Origin: Candidatus Nanopusillus sp.
GTDB taxonomy: Archaea > Nanobdellota > Nanobdellia > Nanobdellales > Nanobdellaceae
Direction of reading: 5' to 3'
NCBI GenBank assembly: GCA_046536775.1
Contig: JAWDMD010000016.1
Coordinates: 1-10,339 of the forward strand
DNA: 10,339 bases
Part shown: piece after piece, positions 3-10,339 of the stretch
Numbering within the stretch: the stretch's first letter is position 1
How the letters are laid out: each line of letters begins with the position of its first letter
Notes under the pieces: generated by a model
Seen by the model: only the letters and a program-made list of their open reading frames with translations
Database searches by the model: none
What the model was told of the DNA's origin: nothing
Position numbers and translations under genes: made by a program

Positions 3-1220
3 ATGTTATTAACAATATTTCCCCTTGCATCAATATTCTTAGGAAATATGTTTAGTCCCCCAGTTTTGTTTATATTATTCGATATTTTAATACCACTTAT
101 AGCATTTTATTCGATTAATTACGCAATTTCTTCGAAAATAATTAATGTTTTTTCAAATGATGATATATATTTATTCTATTATTTAAGGAAAAAGGATTTA
201 ACAAATAAATTAATATCGGTAGCTAGTGGAATTTCGGTAAGTATACTACTATTTTTTATAATCTTTTTTGTAATATATCAATATTTATATAAATTTGATA
301 TTTCAGGAATATTATTATCAGAATTTTTAGTATTTATAATGGGTTTGTCCATTTCAGTAATTGCTTTTATTTATTATTCTCATTATAAGGATTTATATAA
401 AAATTTAGAAAGAATAGGAACAGATTTACCATCGTTTTTATTATCTTTAAGTTCAGCATTGAATGAAGGTTATCCACTTGAAAAGGCAATGATATATATT
501 TACTCTAAATATAAAGGTAGTCCAATAGGAGATTTTATATCAAAAATATATCAAAACTTAAGGGCAGGTTTATCATTTTATGATTCAATATTTGATATTG
601 AATATGGAGCTCTATCTAAAATTCCATCATCGCAATTGAGAGCTGCAATGGAACTATTATATGAAGCTAGCAGTCAATCTCCTACAGAAGCTTCTATTAT
701 AACAGGTATAATTGCAAAATATTTTTTATTAATATCAAAAGTAAAAGAGAGAATTAAAGACCTTGTAGCAGAAGATTTATCTCAATTAAAGTCTCTATTG
801 AGAATTTTAGGTCCAGTTATTCTAGGAATAATAAGTGCAGTTAGTGTAATGGTTATAGAAATTTTATATAAATTGTCTTTTCAATTTAATCAACTATCTA
901 ATTTAACATCATCTAATTCTAATGTTTCTCAATATGTAAACTCATTACCAAATATTATATTTAATATATTTAACCTAAATTCTCTCATATCTCCCGATTC
1001 AATGATAATTATAATTGGAATATTTAATTTAGCAATAGCTTTTGTAATTACATATGCAATTAATAGTATAGAAAATAGTGGGGATAAATTGGGATTTTAT
1101 TATTATTTATATAGATATTATATAATTAATATATTAATATTCTTTATATTTTCCACTTTATCTACAATAGGATTATATATGTTTATACAGGGAATATTAA
1201 ATATTAGCCAACTTATCTAA
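3..1220 (+). CDS. Polytopic membrane protein with a T2SS-F (GspF/TadC/FlaJ-like) domain. Probable platform protein of an archaeal type IV pilus/archaellum-type machine, possibly 5'-truncated by the window edge.
   Basis: 405-aa ORF from the track. It has multiple hydrophobic helices. The central soluble segment LPSFLLSLSSALNEGYPLEKAMIYIYSKYKGSPIGDFISKIYQNLRAGLSFYDSIFDI...IPSSQLRAAMELLYEASSQS matches the helical-bundle pattern of T2SS-F domains (x-G-x-sL-x-eAl ... l-x-x-G-x-s-x-x-x-a). FlaJ/TadC proteins normally carry two such repeats and only one is visible, and the ORF starts at nt 3, so the true start may lie upstream of the window. Confidence 0.55.
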   Translation: MLLTIFPLASIFLGNMFSPPVLFILFDILIPLIAFYSINYAISSKIINVFSNDDIYLFYYLRKKDLTNKLISVASGISVSILLFFIIFFVIYQYLYKFDISGILLSEFLVFIMGLSISVIAFIYYSHYKDLYKNLERIGTDLPSFLLSLSSALNEGYPLEKAMIYIYSKYKGSPIGDFISKIYQNLRAGLSFYDSIFDIEYGALSKIPSSQLRAAMELLYEASSQSPTEASIITGIIAKYFLLISKVKERIKDLVAEDLSQLKSLLRILGPVILGIISAVSVMVIEILYKLSFQFNQLSNLTSSNSNVSQYVNSLPNIIFNIFNLNSLISPDSMIIIIGIFNLAIAFVITYAINSIENSGDKLGFYYYLYRYYIINILIFFIFSTLSTIGLYMFIQGILNISQLI

Positions 1221-1874
1221 ATTTTTTATTAGAATATCAATTGTTATTCCATTTATATTATTATCTATTACATCATCAATCAATCTTGGACATGCAGAGA
1301 AGATCCAGAAATCTATATATGGAAAATTTAATAATTGTAAAATATCGATTGTATCTCCAATAAATAAGTATACATTTTTTCCAGATTTTTCTAATTTATC
1401 TCTAATTTTTGATGTCTCTACATAATAATATTGTCCAGGCTTTATCGATAATATTATACCAATGTTCTTTGAATTCTTTAATTTATTCAATAGAAATTCT
1501 AAAATTTTATCAAAATTATAATCTGGTTCATAAACTTTTATTTCTCCATATATTGGATCATAGACAATTACATGTTTCTTTAATTTTCTTATAATATTTT
1601 CTGCATGAAATTTTCCATTTCCAATTAATAATACTGTATCTATATCATTTATATTTGCAGGTTCTGAATAACATCCCAAAACATTTATCCCATATAATTC
1701 TTCTTTTAATATTATTTCATAATCTTCCTTTAATATCTCATATATTTTCTTAGCATATTCTGAATATTGCGTTAAAGATGTTAGAGCGAATTTTTTTGGT
1801 AAATATTTTTTTAATTCATCCAAATTTTTAATTTCTTTTAATTTATATCTTGTTGGTATATTTATTATATCCAT
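1197..1874 (-). CDS. dph2: Dph2-like 2-(3-amino-3-carboxypropyl)histidine synthase (diphthamide biosynthesis, radical-SAM-type), N-terminally short form
   Basis: The motifs VLGC, IGNGKFHA and SACPRL align with the VLGC / GSGIFHP / VACPRV motifs of Pyrococcus horikoshii Dph2 domains 2-3. The track start at 1877 is TTG and is immediately followed by ATG at 1874, so I take the ATG. An in-frame TAA at 1887-1889 forbids any N-terminal extension. Confidence 0.75.
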   Translation of the reverse strand: MDIINIPTRYKLKEIKNLDELKKYLPKKFALTSLTQYSEYAKKIYEILKEDYEIILKEELYGINVLGCYSEPANINDIDTVLLIGNGKFHAENIIRKLKKHVIVYDPIYGEIKVYEPDYNFDKILEFLLNKLKNSKNIGIILSIKPGQYYYVETSKIRDKLEKSGKNVYLFIGDTIDILQLLNFPYIDFWIFSACPRLIDDVIDNNINGITIDILIKNLDKLANI

Positions 1875-1908
1875 CAAACTTATAATTTAAAAAACGAATA
1901 AAAATCTA

Positions 1909-3054
1909 ATGATAGATGTTATAAATGCGAAGAAACTTGCAGAAAAATATAAGAAATTATATGGAAAATCTATAATATTAAAAAAGGATATAAATGGGTA
2001 CACTCCCCCATCAAATTTAATTAGTTCAATTAATTATCCAAAATTATCTTTGGGTGTTTTGACATCTTATAATGAAAATATAGAATTATATGATAATCCA
2101 ATATATTGGGCAAAAAATAATATAGATGTTGAAGAAATTATAAAGAGTAGAGTAAGTTTAATAAATGCAAAGAAAATTGTAGGTGCAAATTTACCAAGAA
2201 AAAATGATAAATTATATAATGAAATTTTAGATTCAATGTTATCAGTTAAATCGATAAATTTGGAAATATATTTAAATAAAATAAGTGAAAATATGGAAAT
2301 TTCAAAGATAATAGGGTTATATGGGTATTCTGGAATAATAGATAAAATAAAGATAAATGAAAACCCAAAGATACCAAATGATATATATAAAATAGAGGAA
2401 ATGAAGTCGGAAGATTCTATATATTTTCTATATAAATCTGGAATGTCAGATTATTATTTATCAAGATTATTTTCAATGGGTTTCTTTGGATATAAGATAA
2501 ATAAAAAATTAGTTCCAAGTAAATGGGCAATAACAGCAGTTCATGAAATTTTAGAGAAAAAAATAAAGGAAGAAATAAAAGATTATTCTAAAATTAATGA
2601 TAAATATTATTTATTCTATTATTCTTTATATGGAAATGATTTTTATGGGGTATTTTTTCCAGGTAATGGAAATTCCGAATTGATCGAGACATTAATACCA
2701 GGTTCTGTATATAATTTAAACTCTAAATATAGTATAATTGGTAGAGATGATGAATCTGGTGGTTATAGTGCTTTAAAATTATCTTTTGCAGAATTTATGA
2801 GAAATTATAAAATGACTGGAAATTTGGTTGTATTTAGATTTGTAACAAAAGAGTATAAAGTTCCTTTGGGCGTTTGGGTTGTTAGGGAAGGAACTAAATA
2901 TATGTTAAATAATTTAGTAGAAAAATTTGATAATTATAACGAACTAATAAAATATCTAAGTAATAAATTTATGAATAAATATAATGTTTCGGTATATAAA
3001 TTAAGAAAATATAGTAATTTATTGAGTCAGAAATCAATTTTTAATTTTATTTAA
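1909..3054 (+). CDS. Nre-family protein (archaeal DUF650/DUF651, putative PCNA-associated DNA repair factor)
   Basis: YTPPSNLISSINYPKLSLGVL, VPSKWAITAVHEIL and GGYSALKLS...KVPLGVWVVREGTK resemble the conserved blocks I recall for Nre N- and C-terminal domains (sPPsvFVG..YP.v.vGpl; P.kWsITAVDd; GGYYA...PLGVWqVRE). The extreme C-terminus QKSIFNFI fits a PIP box. Confidence 0.6.
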   Translation: MIDVINAKKLAEKYKKLYGKSIILKKDINGYTPPSNLISSINYPKLSLGVLTSYNENIELYDNPIYWAKNNIDVEEIIKSRVSLINAKKIVGANLPRKNDKLYNEILDSMLSVKSINLEIYLNKISENMEISKIIGLYGYSGIIDKIKINENPKIPNDIYKIEEMKSEDSIYFLYKSGMSDYYLSRLFSMGFFGYKINKKLVPSKWAITAVHEILEKKIKEEIKDYSKINDKYYLFYYSLYGNDFYGVFFPGNGNSELIETLIPGSVYNLNSKYSIIGRDDESGGYSALKLSFAEFMRNYKMTGNLVVFRFVTKEYKVPLGVWVVREGTKYMLNNLVEKFDNYNELIKYLSNKFMNKYNVSVYKLRKYSNLLSQKSIFNFI

Positions 3055-3507
3055 ATAATATTTTGTTATACTATCTCCATAATAATGTATATTTTCTACT
3101 ATCTTTCCTTTTTCCATTTTAATGGCATCATTACTATCATATAATACTCTTCCAATTGCTAATAATTTATTATCTTCAGATATTATCAATATTATTTCAT
3201 CCTTTTTGAAATCTGAAAATTCAATTATTCCTGGTCTAAATACATCCGCACCATTTAATATTTTCTCTTTTGCTCCAATATTTACTTTAATATAATTCAT
3301 ATTTGCTTCACATTCATTTATCAAAAATATTGTTGGATATATTTTTTTATCTTTTATAAAAGCTATTGGAATATTATTATATATATAAATATTGTTTTCT
3401 TCATCTAAAAAAACATTTTCATTTTTTAATTTTTCGCATTCTATCTTATAATTGTTTTTTAATACCTCTATTAAATCTTTTCTTGATTTTTTATCTAAAC
3501 TTTTCAT
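3034..3507 (-). CDS. PUA-domain RNA-binding protein (universal archaeal PUA protein, Tma20/MCT-1- or Nip7-like)
   Basis: 157 aa. The C-terminal half KILNGADVFRPGIIEFSDFKKDEIILIISEDNKLLAIGRVLYDSNDAIKMEKGKIVENIHYYGDSI is a typical PUA fold signature (GA.v..pGi......gd.V.v......laiG......e......kG..v...h..gD). I cannot tell the Tma20 and Nip7 subfamilies apart by eye. Confidence 0.75.
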   Translation of the reverse strand: MKSLDKKSRKDLIEVLKNNYKIECEKLKNENVFLDEENNIYIYNNIPIAFIKDKKIYPTIFLINECEANMNYIKVNIGAKEKILNGADVFRPGIIEFSDFKKDEIILIISEDNKLLAIGRVLYDSNDAIKMEKGKIVENIHYYGDSITKYYLNKIKN

Positions 3508-3543
3508 AGAAATATATATAAGTATTTAGTTTAAAAATTAATA

Positions 3544-3804
3544 ATGGTTAGCTTTGATTACAAAACGCCAAATTTGCTAGAAATAATATTATTGGTAGGA
3601 TTTTTTATTAATATGGTGTTCGGATACCTTTTATTGTTCAAAAGCATAGAACTTCCAGTTGCACTACAAAGTTCAGCTGCCGTAGTTATAACAGCTTTAT
3701 TTACATGGTTGGGAGTATTATGGTTATCTGTAATTGCAATATTAATAGAGTATACTAGAAAGGATGTAATAGAATTAAAGGAAAAGCTTGAAAAGAATAA
3801 ATAA
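3544..3804 (+). CDS. Small membrane protein of unknown function (two predicted TM helices plus a charged C-terminal helix)
   Basis: 86-aa ATG-initiated ORF that exactly fills the gap between two minus-strand genes. It has two hydrophobic stretches (LLEIILLVGFFINMVFGYLLLF and VVITALFTWLGVLWLSVIAILI) followed by RKDVIELKEKLEKNK. No family recognised. Confidence 0.45.
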   Translation: MVSFDYKTPNLLEIILLVGFFINMVFGYLLLFKSIELPVALQSSAAVVITALFTWLGVLWLSVIAILIEYTRKDVIELKEKLEKNK

Positions 3805-4653
3805 TTATATTTTTAGTTTTAATTCAACAATATCTTTATCTTCTAATTTATAATTTAATCCAGCTCTTATAATCTTATTTTCTCTAATTATCTTTGCATA
3901 TCTAAATTTATCTATCCACTTTTTATTTATCTTTTCAATGAAATCTTTTATAGTAGAATCCTCATTTAATATAACACAATGATCGGAATCTATTGGTTTT
4001 ACCCTTATTAAATCTAAATCTTTAATCATAGTTTCCAATATTTCTTGTAAATTTATATCTTTAAAATCATTAAATTTATTATATATTATTTTATATTTAT
4101 TACTTGGAATTGTACTAAATTCAATTACTCCTTCGGAAAACTCATTTATTCTTTCTAATTGTTCTTTTATATTTCTTTTTTCATCTAATATTAATATATA
4201 ATAATCTGATAATGATAAAATTGATCTAAATTTTCTTTCAAATGTGGATGGGATTTCAACAAATTGATAATATACACAATTATAAAATATGGTACCAATT
4301 GCAGGATTTATTGTAGAAAAGGGAATTTCACTTACTTCAACATTTGCGTTTGTGAATTTCCTTAAAAAATAGCTTTTTCCAGAGTTTTCTATTCCCAATA
4401 TGCCTATTAAAATATCACCAGATTTTTCTATTAACTTTATGCCACTACCTCCTTTTTTATATTTACCTCCTTGAATTATTTTTTCATATTCTGATATTTT
4501 TTTATTTATCCATGCAATTAAATGTTCAGATCCTTTGTGTTTTGGAGCAGTTTTTAACATTTCATATAAATATTTTAATTTTTCTTCTGGAGTTTTAGAA
4601 TTTTCATATTTTTCTTTGGCAGCATAAAATTCCGGCCCCGCATTTGTTACCAT
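3805..4653 (-). CDS. Divergent, shortened DRG-family GTP-binding protein with C-terminal TGS domain
   Basis: The N-terminal helix region KHKGSEHLIAWINKKISEY matches the DRG pattern KNKATEyHiG.LKAKiA. The P-loop is GIENSGKS and G2 is PFSTINP. The C-terminal FRYAKIIRENKIIRAGLNYKLEDKDIVELKLKI matches the TGS end FRYA.vWG....g.rVg..h.LeDgDi. G3 and G4 are degenerate (see findings). Confidence 0.65.
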   Translation of the reverse strand: MVTNAGPEFYAAKEKYENSKTPEEKLKYLYEMLKTAPKHKGSEHLIAWINKKISEYEKIIQGGKYKKGGSGIKLIEKSGDILIGILGIENSGKSYFLRKFTNANVEVSEIPFSTINPAIGTIFYNCVYYQFVEIPSTFERKFRSILSLSDYYILILDEKRNIKEQLERINEFSEGVIEFSTIPSNKYKIIYNKFNDFKDINLQEILETMIKDLDLIRVKPIDSDHCVILNEDSTIKDFIEKINKKWIDKFRYAKIIRENKIIRAGLNYKLEDKDIVELKLKI

Positions 4654-6289: not shown

Positions 6290-7711
6290 TTAGATAAACC
6301 TATATATTGTTTTATCTCCTTGATCCAATAAATCTATACCAACTTTTCTTAGTTCTTCTCTTATTTTATCAGATAATTCATAATTTTTGGTTTTTCTTAA
6401 TTCATTTCTAATATTTATTATTATGTTTAATAAAATATTTGTTAGATTTTCTTTACTCTCTTTTCCGTAAAATATATCTTCCCATAATCCATAGATCCTT
6501 GATGCAATATTATAGAAATTATATGAAGTAAGGTATAATGTAAATGTTTCGGATCCAATAACATTTTTATTTATATAATTTGTTGCTTCTAATAATATTC
6601 TTGTAGCTTCTCTTGTATTGAAATCGTCTTTTATACTATCTATAAATTCTTTTTCATAATTTAGCAATTCTTTCCATATCTTTATTTTGTTATCATCTAA
6701 ATAAAATGTTCTGTCCAAACTATCTATTTCATTTATTATTGTTTTAATTGTTGAACTTATATATCTATGGTTTTCTTTTGCTTGATTTATACTTTCTTCA
6801 TTTATATCAATTGGTTCTCTATAATGATAGGACCCAATATAAAATCTAGTAATATCTTCTCCATATTTATCTAAAAAATCTTTTGCAGGTATTATATTTC
6901 CCAAACTTTTACTCATTTTTTCTCCTCTAATTTTTATAAATCCAAAATGTAACCAGTATTTTACCCAAGGATGCTTATTAAATCTAGCTTCTGATTGTGC
7001 AATCTCATTTTCATGATGTGGAAATATTAAATCTTGACCTCCGGAGTGTATATCAAATTGTAATCCTAGATATTTTGATGACATTGTAGAACATTCAATA
7101 TGCCAACCAGGTCTTCCTTCTTCAATTTCCGTATTCCAGTATGGTTCATCTTCTTTTTTAAATTTCCATAACGCAAAATCATATGGATGTTTTTTATCTC
7201 CTAAAAATTCTGTTTCTTGTTCCCATTGTTCTTTTATTGTTCCAGACAATTGTCCGTAATATGGATATTTGTCTATATCATAATATATACTATATTTTCC
7301 TTTGTATGCATATCCTTTATTTATTAAATCTTTTATAAAATCTACAATATCATTAATATGTGTTGTAACTCTTGGATTTATATAAAATGGTAAATTATCT
7401 AATCTTTTTATTTGTTCTAAATGATATTTTATATATTCTTCAGGTATTTTTTGCCAATCGTTTAATAAATTTAGTTCTCTTGCTTTTTTTATTATTTTAT
7501 CATCTATATCTGTAAAATTGCTAATTGCTATATCTATGTATCCAAAATATCTAAATATCCTTCTTATAATATCTAGAGAAATTTCTGATCTTAAATGTCC
7601 TATATGTGATGTATCATATGGTGTTATCCCACAATGATATATTTTTACAAAAGGGAATTCTATTGGCTCAAATATCTCTTTTTTCTTTGTTAATGTATTA
7701 TATATATAAAT
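6290..7711 (-). CDS. cysS: Cysteinyl-tRNA synthetase (class I). The 5' boundary is uncertain because no canonical in-frame start codon exists.
   Basis: The track ORF (6290..7249) carries GWHIECS, HSGGQDLIFPHHENEIAQSEA and KMSKS. My manual translation shows the same frame stays open upstream to a TGA at 7733-7735. That stretch encodes the missing N-terminal Rossmann half: IYIYNTLTKKKEIFEP...IYHCGITPYDTSHIGHLRSEISLDIIRRIF...NFTDIDDKIIKKA...INKGYAYKGKYSIYYDIDKYPYYGQLSG (HIGH motif at 7595-7606). The start shown is the ATT at 7711-7709, chosen by alignment to the usual M-x-x-[IV]-Y-N-T-L-T N-terminus. Confidence 0.85.
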   Translation of the reverse strand: MYIYNTLTKKKEIFEPIEFPFVKIYHCGITPYDTSHIGHLRSEISLDIIRRIFRYFGYIDIAISNFTDIDDKIIKKARELNLLNDWQKIPEEYIKYHLEQIKRLDNLPFYINPRVTTHINDIVDFIKDLINKGYAYKGKYSIYYDIDKYPYYGQLSGTIKEQWEQETEFLGDKKHPYDFALWKFKKEDEPYWNTEIEEGRPGWHIECSTMSSKYLGLQFDIHSGGQDLIFPHHENEIAQSEARFNKHPWVKYWLHFGFIKIRGEKMSKSLGNIIPAKDFLDKYGEDITRFYIGSYHYREPIDINEESINQAKENHRYISSTIKTIINEIDSLDRTFYLDDNKIKIWKELLNYEKEFIDSIKDDFNTREATRILLEATNYINKNVIGSETFTLYLTSYNFYNIASRIYGLWEDIFYGKESKENLTNILLNIIINIRNELRKTKNYELSDKIREELRKVGIDLLDQGDKTIYRFI

Positions 7712-7782
7712 TACACCGATTGTCGCCCATTTTCAAATAATTATAAAAAAATATTTAAAAAGATATTTTGAATATTATACGA

Positions 7783-8277
7783 ATGAATAATTTATTTAAG
7801 GATATGATAAAAAGTAAAATTGGAATTATTTTAATTATAATATTTTTTATAATTGGCTATTTTTATATTAAATCAATATTCTTAGGTTTGTCATTATATC
7901 CAATTTATATAAAAATTCTTGCATGTTCATATGTAATTTTATTTTCTTTAAATTTTGCTTTAATATCTTTTATGATAATTAATTATAGGAAATTCTATAC
8001 AGGAAATATTTTATCATTTATCTCTGCAATATTTGGTTTTGCTGGATTTCAAGCATGTTTAGTTGGATGTAGTATGGGTTCTTTTGCAGTTTTGGTTGCA
8101 ACACTTGCCCCAATATTTAGATTGAATATATTTGAATTTGGAGAAATTCTATTAATTGTTAGTGATATTTTGTTTATAGTCAATTTAATATTTTTGTTGG
8201 GATTGAATAAAAGAAAAGATGTTAAAAAATTAAAAGTTTCTAAAAATAATAAAGAAGATTCTTGCTGCTGTTGTTGA
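7783..8277 (+). CDS. Four-helix membrane protein of unknown function with an intramembrane CxxxC and a C-terminal CCCC
   Basis: The track ORF starts at TTG 7768. The first ATG is at 7783 (MNNLFKDMIKSK...), which I prefer. There are about four hydrophobic helices. GFQACLVGCSMG lies in helix 3 (Cys codons at 8056-8058 and 8068-8070). A lysine-rich tail ends EDSCCCC (TGC TGC TGT TGT at 8263-8274), followed by tandem stops TGA TAA. Confidence 0.5.
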   Translation: MNNLFKDMIKSKIGIILIIIFFIIGYFYIKSIFLGLSLYPIYIKILACSYVILFSLNFALISFMIINYRKFYTGNILSFISAIFGFAGFQACLVGCSMGSFAVLVATLAPIFRLNIFEFGEILLIVSDILFIVNLIFLLGLNKRKDVKKLKVSKNNKEDSCCCC

Positions 8278-8370
8278 TAATGCTAATATAATATATTTCT
8301 CTAAAATTTAATTAATTTAATATATAAAAAGATTTGATGTCACTAATTATTTAATTGTAAATATAATCTC

Positions 8371-8384
8371 TTATATTTTAAAAT
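8371..8384 (+). promoter_or_regulatory. Candidate archaeal TATA/BRE element for tRNA-Leu
   Basis: TTATATTTTAAAAT is centred about 30 nt upstream of the mature tRNA 5' end (8409), consistent with a TATA box about 26 nt upstream of a short-leader transcription start. TATA-like strings are frequent in this AT-rich DNA, so specificity is low. Confidence 0.3.
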
Positions 8385-8408
8385 TTTAATAGATATAAAA
8401 TAAAATAC

Positions 8409-8492
8409 GCGGCGGTGTCCGAGAGGCCAAAGGAGATCGGTTGAGGTCCGATTGGATAAGATCCGCCAGGGGTTCAAATCCCCTCCGCCGCA
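8409..8492 (+). tRNA. tRNA-Leu (anticodon GAG), class II with long variable arm, no intron, CCA not encoded
   Basis: Manual fold of 84 nt. Acceptor stem GCGGCGG/CCGCCGC. D stem TCC/GGA with an 11-nt loop. Anticodon stem ATCGG/CCGAT with loop TTGAGGT, giving anticodon GAG. The 15-nt variable region contains a GGAT/ATCC hairpin. T stem AGGGG/CCCCT with loop TTCAAAT. Discriminator is A. The next bases are CTT, so CCA is added post-transcriptionally. Confidence 0.9.
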
Positions 8493-8499
8493 CTTAAAA

Positions 8500-8511
8500 T
8501 TTTATTTTTTT
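8500..8511 (+). terminator. Oligo-T tract (TTTTATTTTTTT), likely archaeal terminator of the tRNA transcript
   Basis: The T-run begins 8 nt after the tRNA 3' end. Archaeal RNA polymerase terminates at oligo-T stretches. Background T-richness lowers specificity. Confidence 0.4.
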
Positions 8512-8600
8512 ATAATTCTAAGTATTGTTAGATTTACTAATTTATTCAATCCATCAATTATCATAAAATATTTATTACCTAAGATATAAATAATATTTAT

Positions 8601-10169
8601 ATGAAATCTATTTCCCCAATAATAGCATCAATATTAATTATTGTTATTACAGTTGCAATTGCTGGAATTTTTTATGCATTTACTTCTGGTATGTTTGGTT
8701 CTTTAACCCAATCATCATCTCAACAAATTCAACAGCAATCTCAAATAACATCATTTACAATAAATACTATATATTGTTCAAATAATATATTATATTTTGA
8801 TATTTATAATAAAGGAAATATACCTATTAATATAAATAATTCTCAAATAATATTTACTGATAATTATGGAAATACTATATCGGTAAATGGAAGTAATATT
8901 ATATGTAATAATAGAAATATAATACCTTCTGGAAGTAATAGTTTATGTTATATAATAAATAATTATTTCTGTTATTATAGTTATACAGATTATATTAAAA
9001 GTACTAATTTTGTATATAATGGAATAAATTATAATTATGAGATATTAAATAATAATAAATTTAATATAATATATCTTCCTAATTCTAGTAGTTATCCAAT
9101 GATAATATATAATACTCAATCTATTTCAACTCTATCTCCATTTCAACAAGATATAGCAATATGTAATGGAAATATTAATGTAGGTTCTAATTTTGCTTAT
9201 GTAAATAATGCAACACTATTTAATGAAATAAATCCAAATGGACAAAATGTATTATTCTTTAATCCAAATAGTAATCAATTACTTTATTATTCATGGTATG
9301 AAGGTCAATTAAGCAATGGAAGTACATATTGTGATGTATGGTGGATAAATATACCTCAAAGAATTCTTGCTAATTCAAATGTAACTATTTATATGTATAT
9401 AGGAAATAGTTCTTCAAATTATTATTCTCAATATTATCCATATGTAGGAGAAACACCCCAATTATCTCCAACATATGCAGAATATGATAATGGAAATTAT
9501 GTATTTAATTACTATTGGGATTTTGCAGGTACAAGTTTACCAAATAATTTAATTTGTACAGTACTGAGTAATCCTTCAGGAGCTTCAGGATCATGTTCAG
9601 TTAATAATGGGGTTTCAGTAGTTAATACAAATGGTTATGATTTTTGGGTTGGTGATTATATGATTACATATTTGTATTATAGTCAACTAATATCAATACC
9701 CACAATTGTGGAAGCGAAAGTTATATCTTTAACAGGAAATTCTGGGGATAGCGGATGGACAAAAGCCGGAATACTTTATCAAAATCAGGTAACTGATTCA
9801 TCAACCCTGAATGGAGAAGTCGATATGATAGTTACTGATGGAGCTGGTTATGCAATTCAATGGCAATCTGAAACTAGTTATATAGCGCCAACAGATAATT
9901 ATAATGGTGGTAGTATAATATATCCTACGATTATTGCACTAGTATTTCCAAATACAAGTTATGCCTGTGGATTTTATGGAAGCTCTCTAGGAGTTTTATC
10001 TCAAGAGGGTAACTGTGTAACTCCCACCTCTAGGGCATCACAAGGATATATCGGATTATTTGTTACGTCTCATAATAGTAATGGATTATCTTCAAGTGCT
10101 GTTTTTCAATACTTATTAGTTAGGGCATATCCTCCAAATGGAATAATGCCTTCAATTTATATTAGTTAA
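8601..10169 (+). CDS. Secreted/surface protein with an archaeal type IV pilin-like (class III) signal peptide and N-terminal hydrophobic helix, then a DUF2341-like domain and a C-terminal lectin/LamG-like beta-sandwich region
   Basis: The N-terminus MKS-ISPIIASILIIVITVAIAGIFYAF matches the archaeal pilin pattern (short basic leader, then [ST]P[IV]I[AG]..L...IT[VI]..A). A Q/S linker (SSSQQIQQQSQITS) follows. The segment NVLFFNPNSNQLLYYSWYEG...CDVWWINIPQRILANSNVTIYMYIGN matches the DUF2341 hallmark (D.rF.d.dG..L.yeiE.w....a.vWVk.p.l.a...t.iymYYGN). The end ...FQYLLVRAYPPNG resembles the usual ...vD.vrvRky..peP terminus of DUF2341/LamG proteins. Confidence 0.7.
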   Translation: MKSISPIIASILIIVITVAIAGIFYAFTSGMFGSLTQSSSQQIQQQSQITSFTINTIYCSNNILYFDIYNKGNIPININNSQIIFTDNYGNTISVNGSNIICNNRNIIPSGSNSLCYIINNYFCYYSYTDYIKSTNFVYNGINYNYEILNNNKFNIIYLPNSSSYPMIIYNTQSISTLSPFQQDIAICNGNINVGSNFAYVNNATLFNEINPNGQNVLFFNPNSNQLLYYSWYEGQLSNGSTYCDVWWINIPQRILANSNVTIYMYIGNSSSNYYSQYYPYVGETPQLSPTYAEYDNGNYVFNYYWDFAGTSLPNNLICTVLSNPSGASGSCSVNNGVSVVNTNGYDFWVGDYMITYLYYSQLISIPTIVEAKVISLTGNSGDSGWTKAGILYQNQVTDSSTLNGEVDMIVTDGAGYAIQWQSETSYIAPTDNYNGGSIIYPTIIALVFPNTSYACGFYGSSLGVLSQEGNCVTPTSRASQGYIGLFVTSHNSNGLSSSAVFQYLLVRAYPPNGIMPSIYIS

Positions 10170-10198
10170 TTTTCTGCTATTTTCAATACTAAAATAAA

Positions 10199-10209
10199 TT
10201 TTTATTTTT
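10199..10209 (+). terminator. Oligo-T tract (TTTTTATTTTT) between the pilin-like gene and adkA, a possible terminator
   Basis: The T-run lies 30 nt after the stop codon at 10167-10169 and 20 nt before the next ATG. Weak specificity in AT-rich DNA. Confidence 0.25.
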
Positions 10210-10228
10210 CATAGTATTTATTTAGTTT

Positions 10229-10339
10229 ATGATAGTAATTGTTGTAGGAGTACCAGGTGTTGGAAAAACTTCAGTAATTAATGAAGCTAAGAAATATTTA
10301 AAATATGAATTTAAAGTTGTAAGTACTGGAGATATTATG
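10229..10339 (+). CDS. adkA: Archaeal-type adenylate kinase, 5' fragment (continues beyond the window)
   Basis: Manual translation from ATG 10229 gives MIVIVVGVPGVGKTSVINEAKKYLKYEFKVVSTGDIM. This matches the archaeal AdkA N-terminus (M..vvvtGvPGvGkTTv.......l.......k.vn.Gd.M) including the P-loop GVPGVGKT. It is open to the window end. Confidence 0.8.
   Translation, partial: MIVIVVGVPGVGKTSVINEAKKYLKYEFKVVSTGDIM

Follow-up and report, generated by a model that had tools for sequence, protein, structure and literature searches.

In the stretch of DNA analysed here (10,339 nucleotides (nt) from GenBank assembly GCA_046536775.1, contig JAWDMD010000016.1, forward strand; hereafter, the window, with a G+C content of 23.7%), an open reading frame (ORF) with an ATG start at positions 8601-10169 of the + strand encodes a protein of 522 amino acids (aa) which, judging from sequence comparison and structural modelling, is probably a modular archaeal type IV pilin-like adhesin for host recognition in this Nanopusillus strain. 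The predicted order of its parts is a class III signal with a hydrophobic helix, an archaellin/UpsA-like immunoglobulin (Ig) domain, a DUF2341 domain and a concanavalin A (ConA)-like head, and the alignments indicate that the head has been exchanged by recombination between conserved flanks, namely, the 3' part of DUF2341 and the C-terminal RAYPPNGxMPS tail. The identical protein MFP3317217.1, from a metagenome-assembled genome (MAG) of Candidatus Nanopusillus sp., is annotated solely as 'archaellin/type IV pilin N-terminal domain-containing protein'. The first-pass annotation of the window, made from the nucleotide sequence alone, had essentially the right domain layout and surmised a host-dependent archaeon, and the source is indeed a host-dependent nanoarchaeon. 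The parts of the gene are as follows:

8601-8690, + strand, class III signal MKS and hydrophobic pilin helix (aa 1-30), with predicted cleavage between S3 and I4
8691-8750, + strand, Q/S-rich flexible linker (aa 31-50; predicted local distance difference test (pLDDT) 53-57)
8751-9080, + strand, archaellin/pilin-type Ig-like beta-sandwich (aa 51-160), with invariant C59, C102, C116 and C124
9081-9485, + strand, DUF2341 domain (aa ~161-295), which makes up the first, conserved half of the mobile module
9486-10130, + strand, ConA-like head of type H2, the exchanged cassette (aa ~296-510; 5' junction within aa ~240-300)
10131-10169, + strand, conserved C-terminal tail RAYPPNGIMPSIYIS and stop codon, the 3' flank of the cassette (last 12 residues)

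Domain architecture

The N-terminus of the protein reads MKS followed by ISPIIASILIIVITVAIAG and passes the cut-off of the NCBIfam archaellin/type IV pilin N-terminal domain TIGR02537 (25.8 bits, cut-off 20). The UpsA model NF046073 matches over aa 1-121 (63.9 bits, E = 1.6 × 10−17); because the equivalog cut-off of 130 is not reached, the protein is related to UpsA and is not an orthologue. In Pfam, the pilin N-terminal family that had been named as a check, Pilin_N (PF07790), remains sub-threshold (20.3 bits, E = 1 × 10−3, gathering cut-off 25.2), as it does on the Nanobdella homologue P0094 (23.9 bits). Among the sequences of the Protein Data Bank (PDB), the best matches were obtained with 8fk7, a type IV pilus subunit of Pyrobaculum calidifontis, with a pilin of the Haloferax type and with 3j1r, the adhesion filament of Ignicoccus; in the phmmer alignment, I4 pairs with residue 1 of the 3j1r chain, which starts VSPVIATLLL. 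The motif [K/R]-S-I-S-P is kept in ~90 homologues, the leaders of which comprise 3-5 residues; the hydropathy maximum lies within aa 1-33, and the AlphaFold2 (AF2) model has a helix at aa 5-28.

The full-length AF2 model reaches a pLDDT of 82.3 and a predicted template modelling (TM) score of 0.72, and the model of aa 1-165 a pLDDT of 81.6, with ~90 in the Ig-like domain. Searched with Foldseek, the latter model matches best 8fk7 (E = 1.7 × 10−4 over 165 columns), then FlaF (4p94) and FlaG (5tuh) of S. acidocaldarius (target TM 0.6-0.72), and also the H. volcanii pilin 8fj5. Thus, the pilin-type N-terminus read from the letters has held up, with profile matches to TIGR02537 and UpsA and the fold of archaeal pilins and archaellins. 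The 'Asn-rich beta module' described behind it is of beta type as proposed, but it is not a separate module: the coverage of the UpsA model and the Foldseek matches to pilins identify it as the pilin's own globular part. Most of the distant relatives found for aa 1-160 are 'naked' pilins of 130-175 aa.

The DUF2341 signature is present as NTQS..SPFQQDIAICN ... YPYVG..P.L..TY..YDNG. The block announced in the first-pass annotation appears to be there, as judged from the homologues and from a virus protein family, but the protein itself does not pass in Pfam: PF10102 matches aa 213-272 with 20.4 bits (E = 7 × 10−4), below the cut-off of 23.4. The homologue P0084, 55% identical and aligned to aa 166-519, passes with 28.0 bits, and 7 further homologues have precomputed PF10102 matches. 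The whole module (aa 157-518) matches phrog_7548 (E = 3.3 × 10−19), a family that includes gp39 of the rudivirus SIRV2, labelled DUF2341 in RefSeq.

For the protein's C-terminal domain, the Pfam search returned no family; neither Laminin_G_3, which had been expected, nor any lectin family was among the results. The concanavalin-type sandwich proposed for this region emerges from the structural model: AF2 predicts ~15 strands for aa 304-521, with pLDDT mostly 80-93, and the best Foldseek matches in the PDB are the L-type lectins ERGIC-53, Emp46/47 and legume lectins, followed by enzymes of glycoside hydrolase family 16 (GH16) (E = 2.6 × 10−6 to 1 × 10−4, probability 1.0, target TM ~0.4-0.56). 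Within the tail that follows, P512, N513 and P517 are nearly invariant over all head types.

A recount reproduced exactly the 10 cysteines and 8 N-x-S/T sequons reported earlier for the 522-aa protein. The sequons had been taken as a sign of glycosylation; with 12.8% Asn and 19% Ser+Thr, ~12 are expected from the composition alone, so that the observed count shows no enrichment and carries no information on glycosylation.

Mosaic structure and head exchange

Across ~75 homologues, aa 1-300 are 60-100% identical to the 522-aa protein (40-95% in the linker, aa 31-50), and aa 301-522 are about 25% identical to most of the same proteins. Clustering of the heads yielded the types H1 (68 members) and H2 (15 members, including the 522-aa protein) and about a dozen rare types; most pilin paralogues carry heads that share 23-35% identity with the H2 head. 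At the nucleotide level, comparison with an H1 pilin gene (L006) shows 88-97% identity over codons 1-240 (78% in the linker window, aa 31-60), 74-78% over codons 241-300, 42-60% over codons 301-510 and 92% over codons 511-522; the same 92% was found between the tail and that of a second gene (L007), despite the unrelated heads. The converse pattern was observed with module 1 of a gene for a 993-aa protein with a Sec signal from N. acidilobi 7A (L026): 76-92% identity over codons 271-510 and nothing alignable at the 5' end. At the protein level, the H2 head is 82.5% identical to this module 1.

The H2 heads of P0005-P0009 are 84-85% identical to that of the 522-aa protein, and those from other phyla, including Micrarchaeota, 54-67%; otherwise, H2 is found on non-pilin carriers. 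Direct transfer between phyla into this gene was considered and rejected on these figures: the closest H2 heads outside this locus are in Nanopusillus itself, which makes an intragenomic donor more likely. The G+C fraction of the head is 0.338 vs. 0.219 in the 5' part, with the rise mostly in codon positions 1 and 2; a recent foreign origin of the head was not argued from this difference, the G+C fraction at codon position 3 (0.152 vs. 0.10-0.14 in neighbouring genes) being a weak indication.

In the closed Nanobdella genome, three pilin paralogues at separate loci are 100% identical in nucleotide sequence over most of the first ~540 nt, the exception being two windows of one copy (94-98%). 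Their DUF2341 parts are patchy (61-98%), and their heads are unrelated (23-50% identical). Such near-identical stalks joined to unrelated heads indicate that the stalk has undergone gene conversion and that the heads have been exchanged or have diverged; the near-identical 5' stalk among the paralogues in general fits gene conversion as well. We initially considered the heads of the family to be hypervariable, but clustering showed that most pilin paralogues carry one type, H1, so that the repertoire is limited, with Nanobdella being more divergent. Judging from the alignments, cassette exchange within a limited head repertoire is the accurate description.

The linker reads GSLTQSSSQQIQQQSQ in the 522-aa protein and is of the SSSNNLVNQQS type in most others. 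Its identity to that of the 522-aa protein falls into two classes (40-60% and 80-95%), which do not depend on the remainder of the stalk, and by this comparison, aa 31-50 appear to be a second, small mosaic segment.

Homology with rudiviral proteins

Compared with predicted viral structures (BFVD), the Foldseek matches were far stronger than those in the PDB. They include A0A5P9U552 (1,311 aa; E = 2.5 × 10−28, 35% identity), a 'DUF2341 domain-containing protein' of Sulfolobales Beppu rod-shaped virus 1 (SBRV1; E = 7 × 10−24) and a structural protein of Sulfolobus polyhedral virus 2. When aa 161-522 were compared by tblastn with 50,697 genomes of phages and archaeal viruses, matches were found only in Sulfolobales rudiviruses and in Los Azufres archaeal virus 1 (LAAV1), which is unclassified in its record; a scan of IMG/VR with nanoarchaeal patterns gave no match. 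Sulfolobales is the order of two known host genera of the nanoarchaeal family. The viral homologues are:

L054, 4317-6020, SIRV2 gp39
L056, 3215-4963, SBRV1 ORF38
L057, 1556-2548
L058, 1604-3340

In BLASTP, SBRV1 ORF38 shows 30% identity over 358 aa (E = 7 × 10−21), covering aa 263-570 of ORF38, and hhalign against the rudiviral ORF564 proteins gives a probability of 99.95% (E = 1 × 10−37). The motifs at both ends of the module are common to the nanoarchaeal and rudiviral proteins, and VRAYPPNGVMPS closes the latter. The match is confined to positions 235-580 of the 591 in the phrog_7548 profile; thus, what is common to both is a module, and the 522-aa protein is no member of the viral family. 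In SIRV2, the homologue is gp39/ORF564, directly after ORF1070, and this neighbourhood is conserved in rudiviruses. ORF1070 (P1070) is a large minor structural protein thought to form the host-recognising terminal fibres (PMC10541130), and the fibres of SIRV2 bind host pili (PMC4456609). Three minor structural proteins are stated in the literature (PMC3569270), and the LAAV1 record labels its homologue a 'putative structural protein'.

Distribution of the family and carriers of the module

The first homologue search returned 404 relatives, of which the named ones belong mostly to Nanopusillus, Nanobsidianus, Nanobdella and strain YN1. In a scan with one genome per species, every one of the 48 loci identified belonged to Nanopusillaceae (N. 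acidilobi 7A, genome size 606 kb, 4 loci; Nanobdella aerobiophila, 669 kb, 5; YN1, 773 kb, 6). By sequence, the family of the 522-aa protein is Nanopusillaceae-specific. The C-terminal module alone also matches proteins in MAGs of Micrarchaeota, Marsarchaeota, Conexivisphaerales and Thermoplasmata; a search with the head only gave 11 matches. From PFQQ to YPPNG, the DUF2341-head module has a median length of 337 aa, and within the family it is joined to at least five N-terminal carriers:

carrier 1, UpsA-like pilin, as in the 522-aa protein
carrier 2, a second class-III-like N-terminus (MRLQSE...)
carrier 3, a Sec signal, in proteins that reach 800-1,000 aa or more and frequently contain two modules
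carrier 4, a transmembrane anchor
carrier 5, a short pilin helix without the Ig domain

The Micrarchaeota homologues have another pilin-type signal (AQSAMEYL...). One of them, P0084, combines DUF2341 and an H2 head with a different class-III-type signal (KAQSAMEYLMTYGWAILIV); the head is 67% identical and the rest is unrelated. On a 20-kb Micrarchaeota MAG contig with a G+C fraction of 0.39 (L003), two DUF2341 proteins are encoded at 2315-3913 and 11038-12711. In another sequence (L004, JGI 3300001340, G+C fraction 0.357), the gene at 591-3400 joins DUF2341 and an H2 head (65%) to a non-pilin domain of ~200 aa with the motif GRNHWVGQGLE, with two head-less paralogues of this N-terminal domain directly upstream, beside a PKD-like protein. 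There is a weak match to phrog_5417, and the protein possibly belongs to another fibre or viral system; a tblastn search with the carrier domain against phages gave no match.

The proteins P0105-P0120 (e.g. L035 1182-2543), of ~450 aa, share the stalk (aa 1-160, 77-89% identical) and continue into an unrelated C-terminal part from which the PFQQ and YPPNG motifs are absent. Among them, the related but longer P0112 (636 aa), in which the same stalk carries another head, scores above the cut-off of Pfam Laminin_G_3. These proteins may correspond to the type of Nanobdella MJ1_0179, which is discussed below.

The locus: an accessory insertion downstream of a tRNA gene

The features around the gene are as follows:

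3-1220, + strand, 3' part of a FlaJ/TadC-type type IV pilus platform gene (405 of 669 codons, cut by the contig end)
8409-8493, + strand, tRNA-Leu(GAG), identified by ARAGORN, 108 nt upstream of the pilin gene
8528-10192, + strand, accessory segment of 1,665 bp with the putative promoter and the pilin-adhesin gene, absent from N. acidilobi 7A
8562-8583, + strand, A/T-rich TATA-box-like element CATAAAATATTTATTACCTAAG, 18-39 nt before the ATG

From the platform gene to adenylate kinase, N. acidilobi 7A shows the same gene order. This strain has the same tRNA-Leu(GAG) with no pilin gene after it, and its adenylate kinase gene (adk) lies 106 bp downstream. In the blastn comparison, window positions 8360-8527 correspond to L059 19078-19243 (92%) and positions 10193-10339 to L059 19280-19427 (96%), strain 7A having 36 bp in place of the 1,665 bp of the window; no flanking direct repeats (att-like) were found at the insertion borders. 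The same insertion with an H2 pilin occupies the same locus in two other assemblies (L061 and L062), which identifies it as a strain-variable accessory gene and not the product of a chimeric assembly.

In an alignment of the upstream regions of 12 family genes, CATAAAATATTTATTACCTAAG is near-identical in the window, L061, L062 and L007, and the Nanobdella copies have a related upstream element, TTATATATTAC; by its sequence and position, we infer a putative promoter.

Of the 15 loci with a pilin carrier, 13 begin 60-210 nt downstream of a tRNA gene on the same strand (the window, L006, L007, L009, L010, L012, L014, L017, L018, L019, L035, L061 and L062). Given an estimate of 3-6% of genes directly downstream of a tRNA, this linkage is not due to chance. 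At least seven tRNAs are represented (Leu-GAG, an intron-containing Leu, Leu-CAA, Phe, Val, Lys and Arg), and a second tRNA is often located just past the stop codon. The three tRNA-Leu genes have an identical 22-nt 3' end, and tRNA genes may serve as recombination or integration hot spots for the cassette. The intron-containing tRNA-Leu genes, of 100 nt, are missed by ARAGORN and score 49-52 bits with Rfam (L007 2342-2441, L006 152-252, L010 917-1016 and L009 2193-2293); their 22-nt 3' end is the same as that of tRNA-Leu(GAG) and tRNA-Leu(CAA). Sequences upstream of other family genes that we had taken for 3' fragments of tRNAs proved, by Rfam, to be these complete genes.

The platform gene is 7.4 kb from the pilin-adhesin gene. 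Its Pfam match to T2SSF is weak (E = 3.9 × 10−4); its full-length homologues of 669 aa, among them N. acidilobi Nps_02245, are 84-99% identical and are named 'Flp pilus assembly protein TadB' at JGI and 'type II secretion system F family' at NCBI. In a 99% identical relative (L060, 7782-12010), a gene for a 747-aa T2SSE (VirB11-type) ATPase lies directly upstream of the platform gene, and for the ATPase of N. acidilobi, Nps_02250, abundance values are listed in the published proteome table (PMC4935971, supplement). The platform protein is 84-99% identical across Nanopusillus and 47-60% in more distant Nanopusillaceae; the pilin-adhesin differs by 14-17% between strains.

Two other genes of the window deserve mention. 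The reading frame of cysteinyl-tRNA synthetase (6290-7732, − strand) is intact to ~7732, and the mechanical ORF call starts it at TTG 7249; no ATG, GTG or TTG precedes the N-terminal HIGH-motif region, the N. acidilobi orthologue has 478 aa, and the start is probably ATT (7711) or ATA (7705). At 7768-8277 (+ strand), a multi-pass membrane protein of 169 aa, for which neither Pfam nor NCBIfam gave a match, carries four cysteines in a row at its C-terminus (...KEDSCCCC); N. acidilobi 7A has a protein of 163 aa at the same position.

Comparison with known systems

As judged by analogy, the closest functional analogue of the 522-aa protein is PilC of S. sanguinis, in which a class III signal, a pilin, an Ig-like and a ConA-like module follow in the same order and which has a similar size (52.8 kDa processed vs. 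~57 kDa). PilC binds host glycans and has been modelled at the pilus tip (PMC9934059). It is, however, bacterial, its pilin part is unrelated in sequence, it contains no DUF2341, and neither head exchange nor a multi-carrier family has been described for it. A looser analogy is offered by FimH and PapG of the chaperone-usher pili, in which one pilin-type domain serves the fibre and one lectin domain the receptor; here the folds and the assembly are unrelated, and the lectin domain is N-terminal, i.e. the order is reversed.

DUF2341 proteins of archaeal pilus loci have been predicted to be tip adhesins (PMC4858521). In M. maripaludis, transposon mutants in the DUF2341 gene of the epd locus are transformation-defective, the gene being required for pilus-dependent transformation (PMC10133366). 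By their description, the Methanococcus epd-locus proteins (arCOG03508) resemble the 522-aa protein in containing DUF2341 and in their link to a type IV pilus, but they are large, are encoded inside a pilus operon and have not been described as fused to a UpsA-like pilin, whereas the gene in the window stands alone beside a tRNA and its product has the PFQQ...RAYPPNG signature. UpsA of Sulfolobales is the best family match for aa 1-121, with the same N-terminal motif and an Ig-like domain; it comprises ~140 aa without a C-terminal module, and the ups operon is absent from the locus of the 522-aa protein. Species-specific cell-cell recognition by Ups pili proceeds through S-layer glycans. In the rudiviral ORF564 family, homology in the C-terminal ~350 aa extends across the entire DUF2341-head module, with 28-33% identity, and a virus-specific N-terminal part of ~235-260 aa takes the place of the pilin stalk.

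The 'lectin-like' protein MJ1_0179 of Nanobdella aerobiophila, with an N-terminal transmembrane helix, an Ig-like fold and a ConA-like lectin, has been proposed to act in host recognition (bioRxiv 10.1101/2023.10.27.564410). It is not among the homologue matches of the 522-aa protein; the Nanobdella homologues found were MJ1_0302, MJ1_0547 and BBL45314.1. The preprint does not discuss these three, nor does it mention the pilin nature, DUF2341, head exchange or a viral link (bioRxiv 10.1101/2023.10.27.564410). In the literature searched, there is no account of the family of the 522-aa protein, of head exchange, of the tRNA linkage or of the relation to rudiviral ORF564.

Proposed function and alternatives

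On the interpretation that we favour, a prepilin peptidase would cleave the protein after Lys2-Ser3, and the helix would either allow it to enter, as a minor subunit or at the tip, a filament made by the neighbouring ATPase/TadC machine or anchor it at the filament base. The head would then bind a ligand on the host surface, most likely a glycan on the S-layer or the pili, and different heads would give different host or ligand specificities. We infer both the tip or minor-pilin placement and the adhesin function of the 522-aa protein. That rudiviruses encode a homologous module beside a terminal-fibre gene is consistent with the module acting at the surface of crenarchaeal cells. High non-synonymous diversity has been reported for nanoarchaeal surface proteins and pilus genes (PMC6142677).

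Several observations weigh against this interpretation. The structural likeness of the head to lectins is moderate (target TM ~0.5, root-mean-square deviation ~7 Å). The presence of the module in Micrarchaeota, Marsarchaeota, Conexivisphaerales and Thermoplasmata implies that it is not specific to parasites of Sulfolobales, and its presence on Sec and transmembrane carriers implies that a filament is not needed for its activity. At the loci examined, the family genes stand alone, outside pilus operons. The strongest matches of the first homologue search include no 'naked' major pilin with the same helix; the short, nearly identical proteins P0127 and P0129 lie on contigs of ~1 kb or less and may be fragments. 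A keyword search of the N. acidilobi gene table yielded no prepilin peptidase, and the proteome table lists no values for Nps_01425, the orthologue in N. acidilobi; this absence is weak and uninformative evidence, given that 10 Lys+Arg in 522 aa leave few usable tryptic peptides. Finally, rudiviral ORF564 is presumably a minor virion protein, for which the records offer only the LAAV1 annotation and the three minor structural proteins of PMC3569270.

Part of this evidence could be accommodated by a different, although rather unlikely, function, namely, a cell-surface receptor that is never polymerised, with the class III signal and helix serving only as an anchor, be it in the membrane or within a short structure of the bindosome kind, and the lectin-like head held at the level of the S-layer. 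Sulfolobus has sugar-binding proteins with class III signals that are similar in this respect. Such a receptor agrees with the lone position of the family genes, with the occurrence of the module on Sec-signal and membrane-anchored carriers in the same genomes and with the lack of a matching short major pilin among the best matches; furthermore, a secreted protein of ~500 aa, arCOG08524, read as an adhesin or S-layer protein, is found in the Sulfolobus bindosome (Makarova et al., PMC4858521). However, the stalk is a complete pilin (helix and Ig domain), the nearest relatives of which are filament subunits (the UpsA model and 8fk7) together with FlaF and FlaG, the stalk identity among paralogues is to be expected if all copies fit one assembly partner, and a pilus ATPase/platform pair is encoded 7 kb away.

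A broader scenario, which we put forward as doubtful, is that a single receptor-binding module, shared horizontally, serves both Nanopusillaceae and the rudiviruses of Sulfolobales for docking on the same kind of crenarchaeal surface structures, i.e. the glycosylated S-layer or pili, and that the nanoarchaea carry it as swappable cassettes. A gene-converted stalk with its promoter would then be parked beside tRNA genes, heads would be drawn from other paralogues and occasionally from other phyla, and host or ligand specificity would change much as phages swap tail-fibre tips.

It appears improbable that the protein is the major subunit of a thick decorated filament, in which each subunit would display its 40-kDa DUF2341-lectin module radially, in a multivalent 'bottle-brush' fibre. 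Every protein found with the pilin domain of the 522-aa protein has a large C-terminal module, and the homologue search returned no full-length naked version at ≥75% identity. Filaments of ~15 nm, besides archaellum-like ones of 7-10 nm, have been reported at the contacts of Nanobdella with its host (bioRxiv 10.1101/2023.10.27.564410), and a volume estimate would allow a width of ~14-18 nm. Against such a fibre, several heads would need to co-polymerise, the bulky modular pilins that have been studied (S. sanguinis PilB and PilC) are minor and tip-located (PMC9934059), and strain 7A lacks the gene, an accessory insertion, at the corresponding locus.

We attach equally little probability to the head being, instead of a lectin, a ConA-fold glycanase or lyase (e.g. 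GH16) that cuts S-layer glycans of the host at the contact. The Foldseek matches do include GH16 and related glucanases (6t2o, 5dxd, 8xph and 6hy3), Glu406 is conserved, H2 heads also retain an Asp, a His and several aromatic residues, and pectin-lyase-like surface proteins have been proposed to degrade the host envelope in Nanobdella (bioRxiv 10.1101/2023.10.27.564410). However, the GH16 motif ExDxxE is absent: the sole E-x-D is E406-V-D408-M-I-V, without the second Glu, and D408 is replaced by Tyr in P0097, so the Asp is not invariant. Moreover, the best structural matches are non-catalytic L-type lectins, and exchange among very different heads (H1, H2 and others, ~25% identical) fits binding specificity better than a conserved catalytic site.

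An assembly artefact joining the stalk of one paralogue to the head of another is a natural suspicion with a near-identical repeat, the classic cause of chimeras, but it is extremely improbable, because the same stalk and H2 head stand between tRNA-Leu(GAG) and adenylate kinase in three independent assemblies (the source MAG, GCA_046533395.1 and JGI 3300005859), and the three copies, diverged by 6-17% at the protein level, are no copies of one error.

Significance

For the way in which the ectoparasites among DPANN and Nanoarchaeota find and hold their hosts, there have so far been almost no molecular candidates. The 522-aa protein is a strong candidate for host recognition, with an expressible piece (aa 161-522, ~40 kDa), and the H1, H2 and other heads make up a family of alternative candidates, the distribution of which could be set against host identity with the single-cell data already available from co-sorted cells. 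Stalk conversion combined with head swapping points to rapid change of specificity in a genome of ~0.6 Mb. The rudiviral homology links two kinds of parasite of thermoacidophilic archaea and, if confirmed, would assign a function to DUF2341 and to the uncharacterised gp39 of SIRV2.

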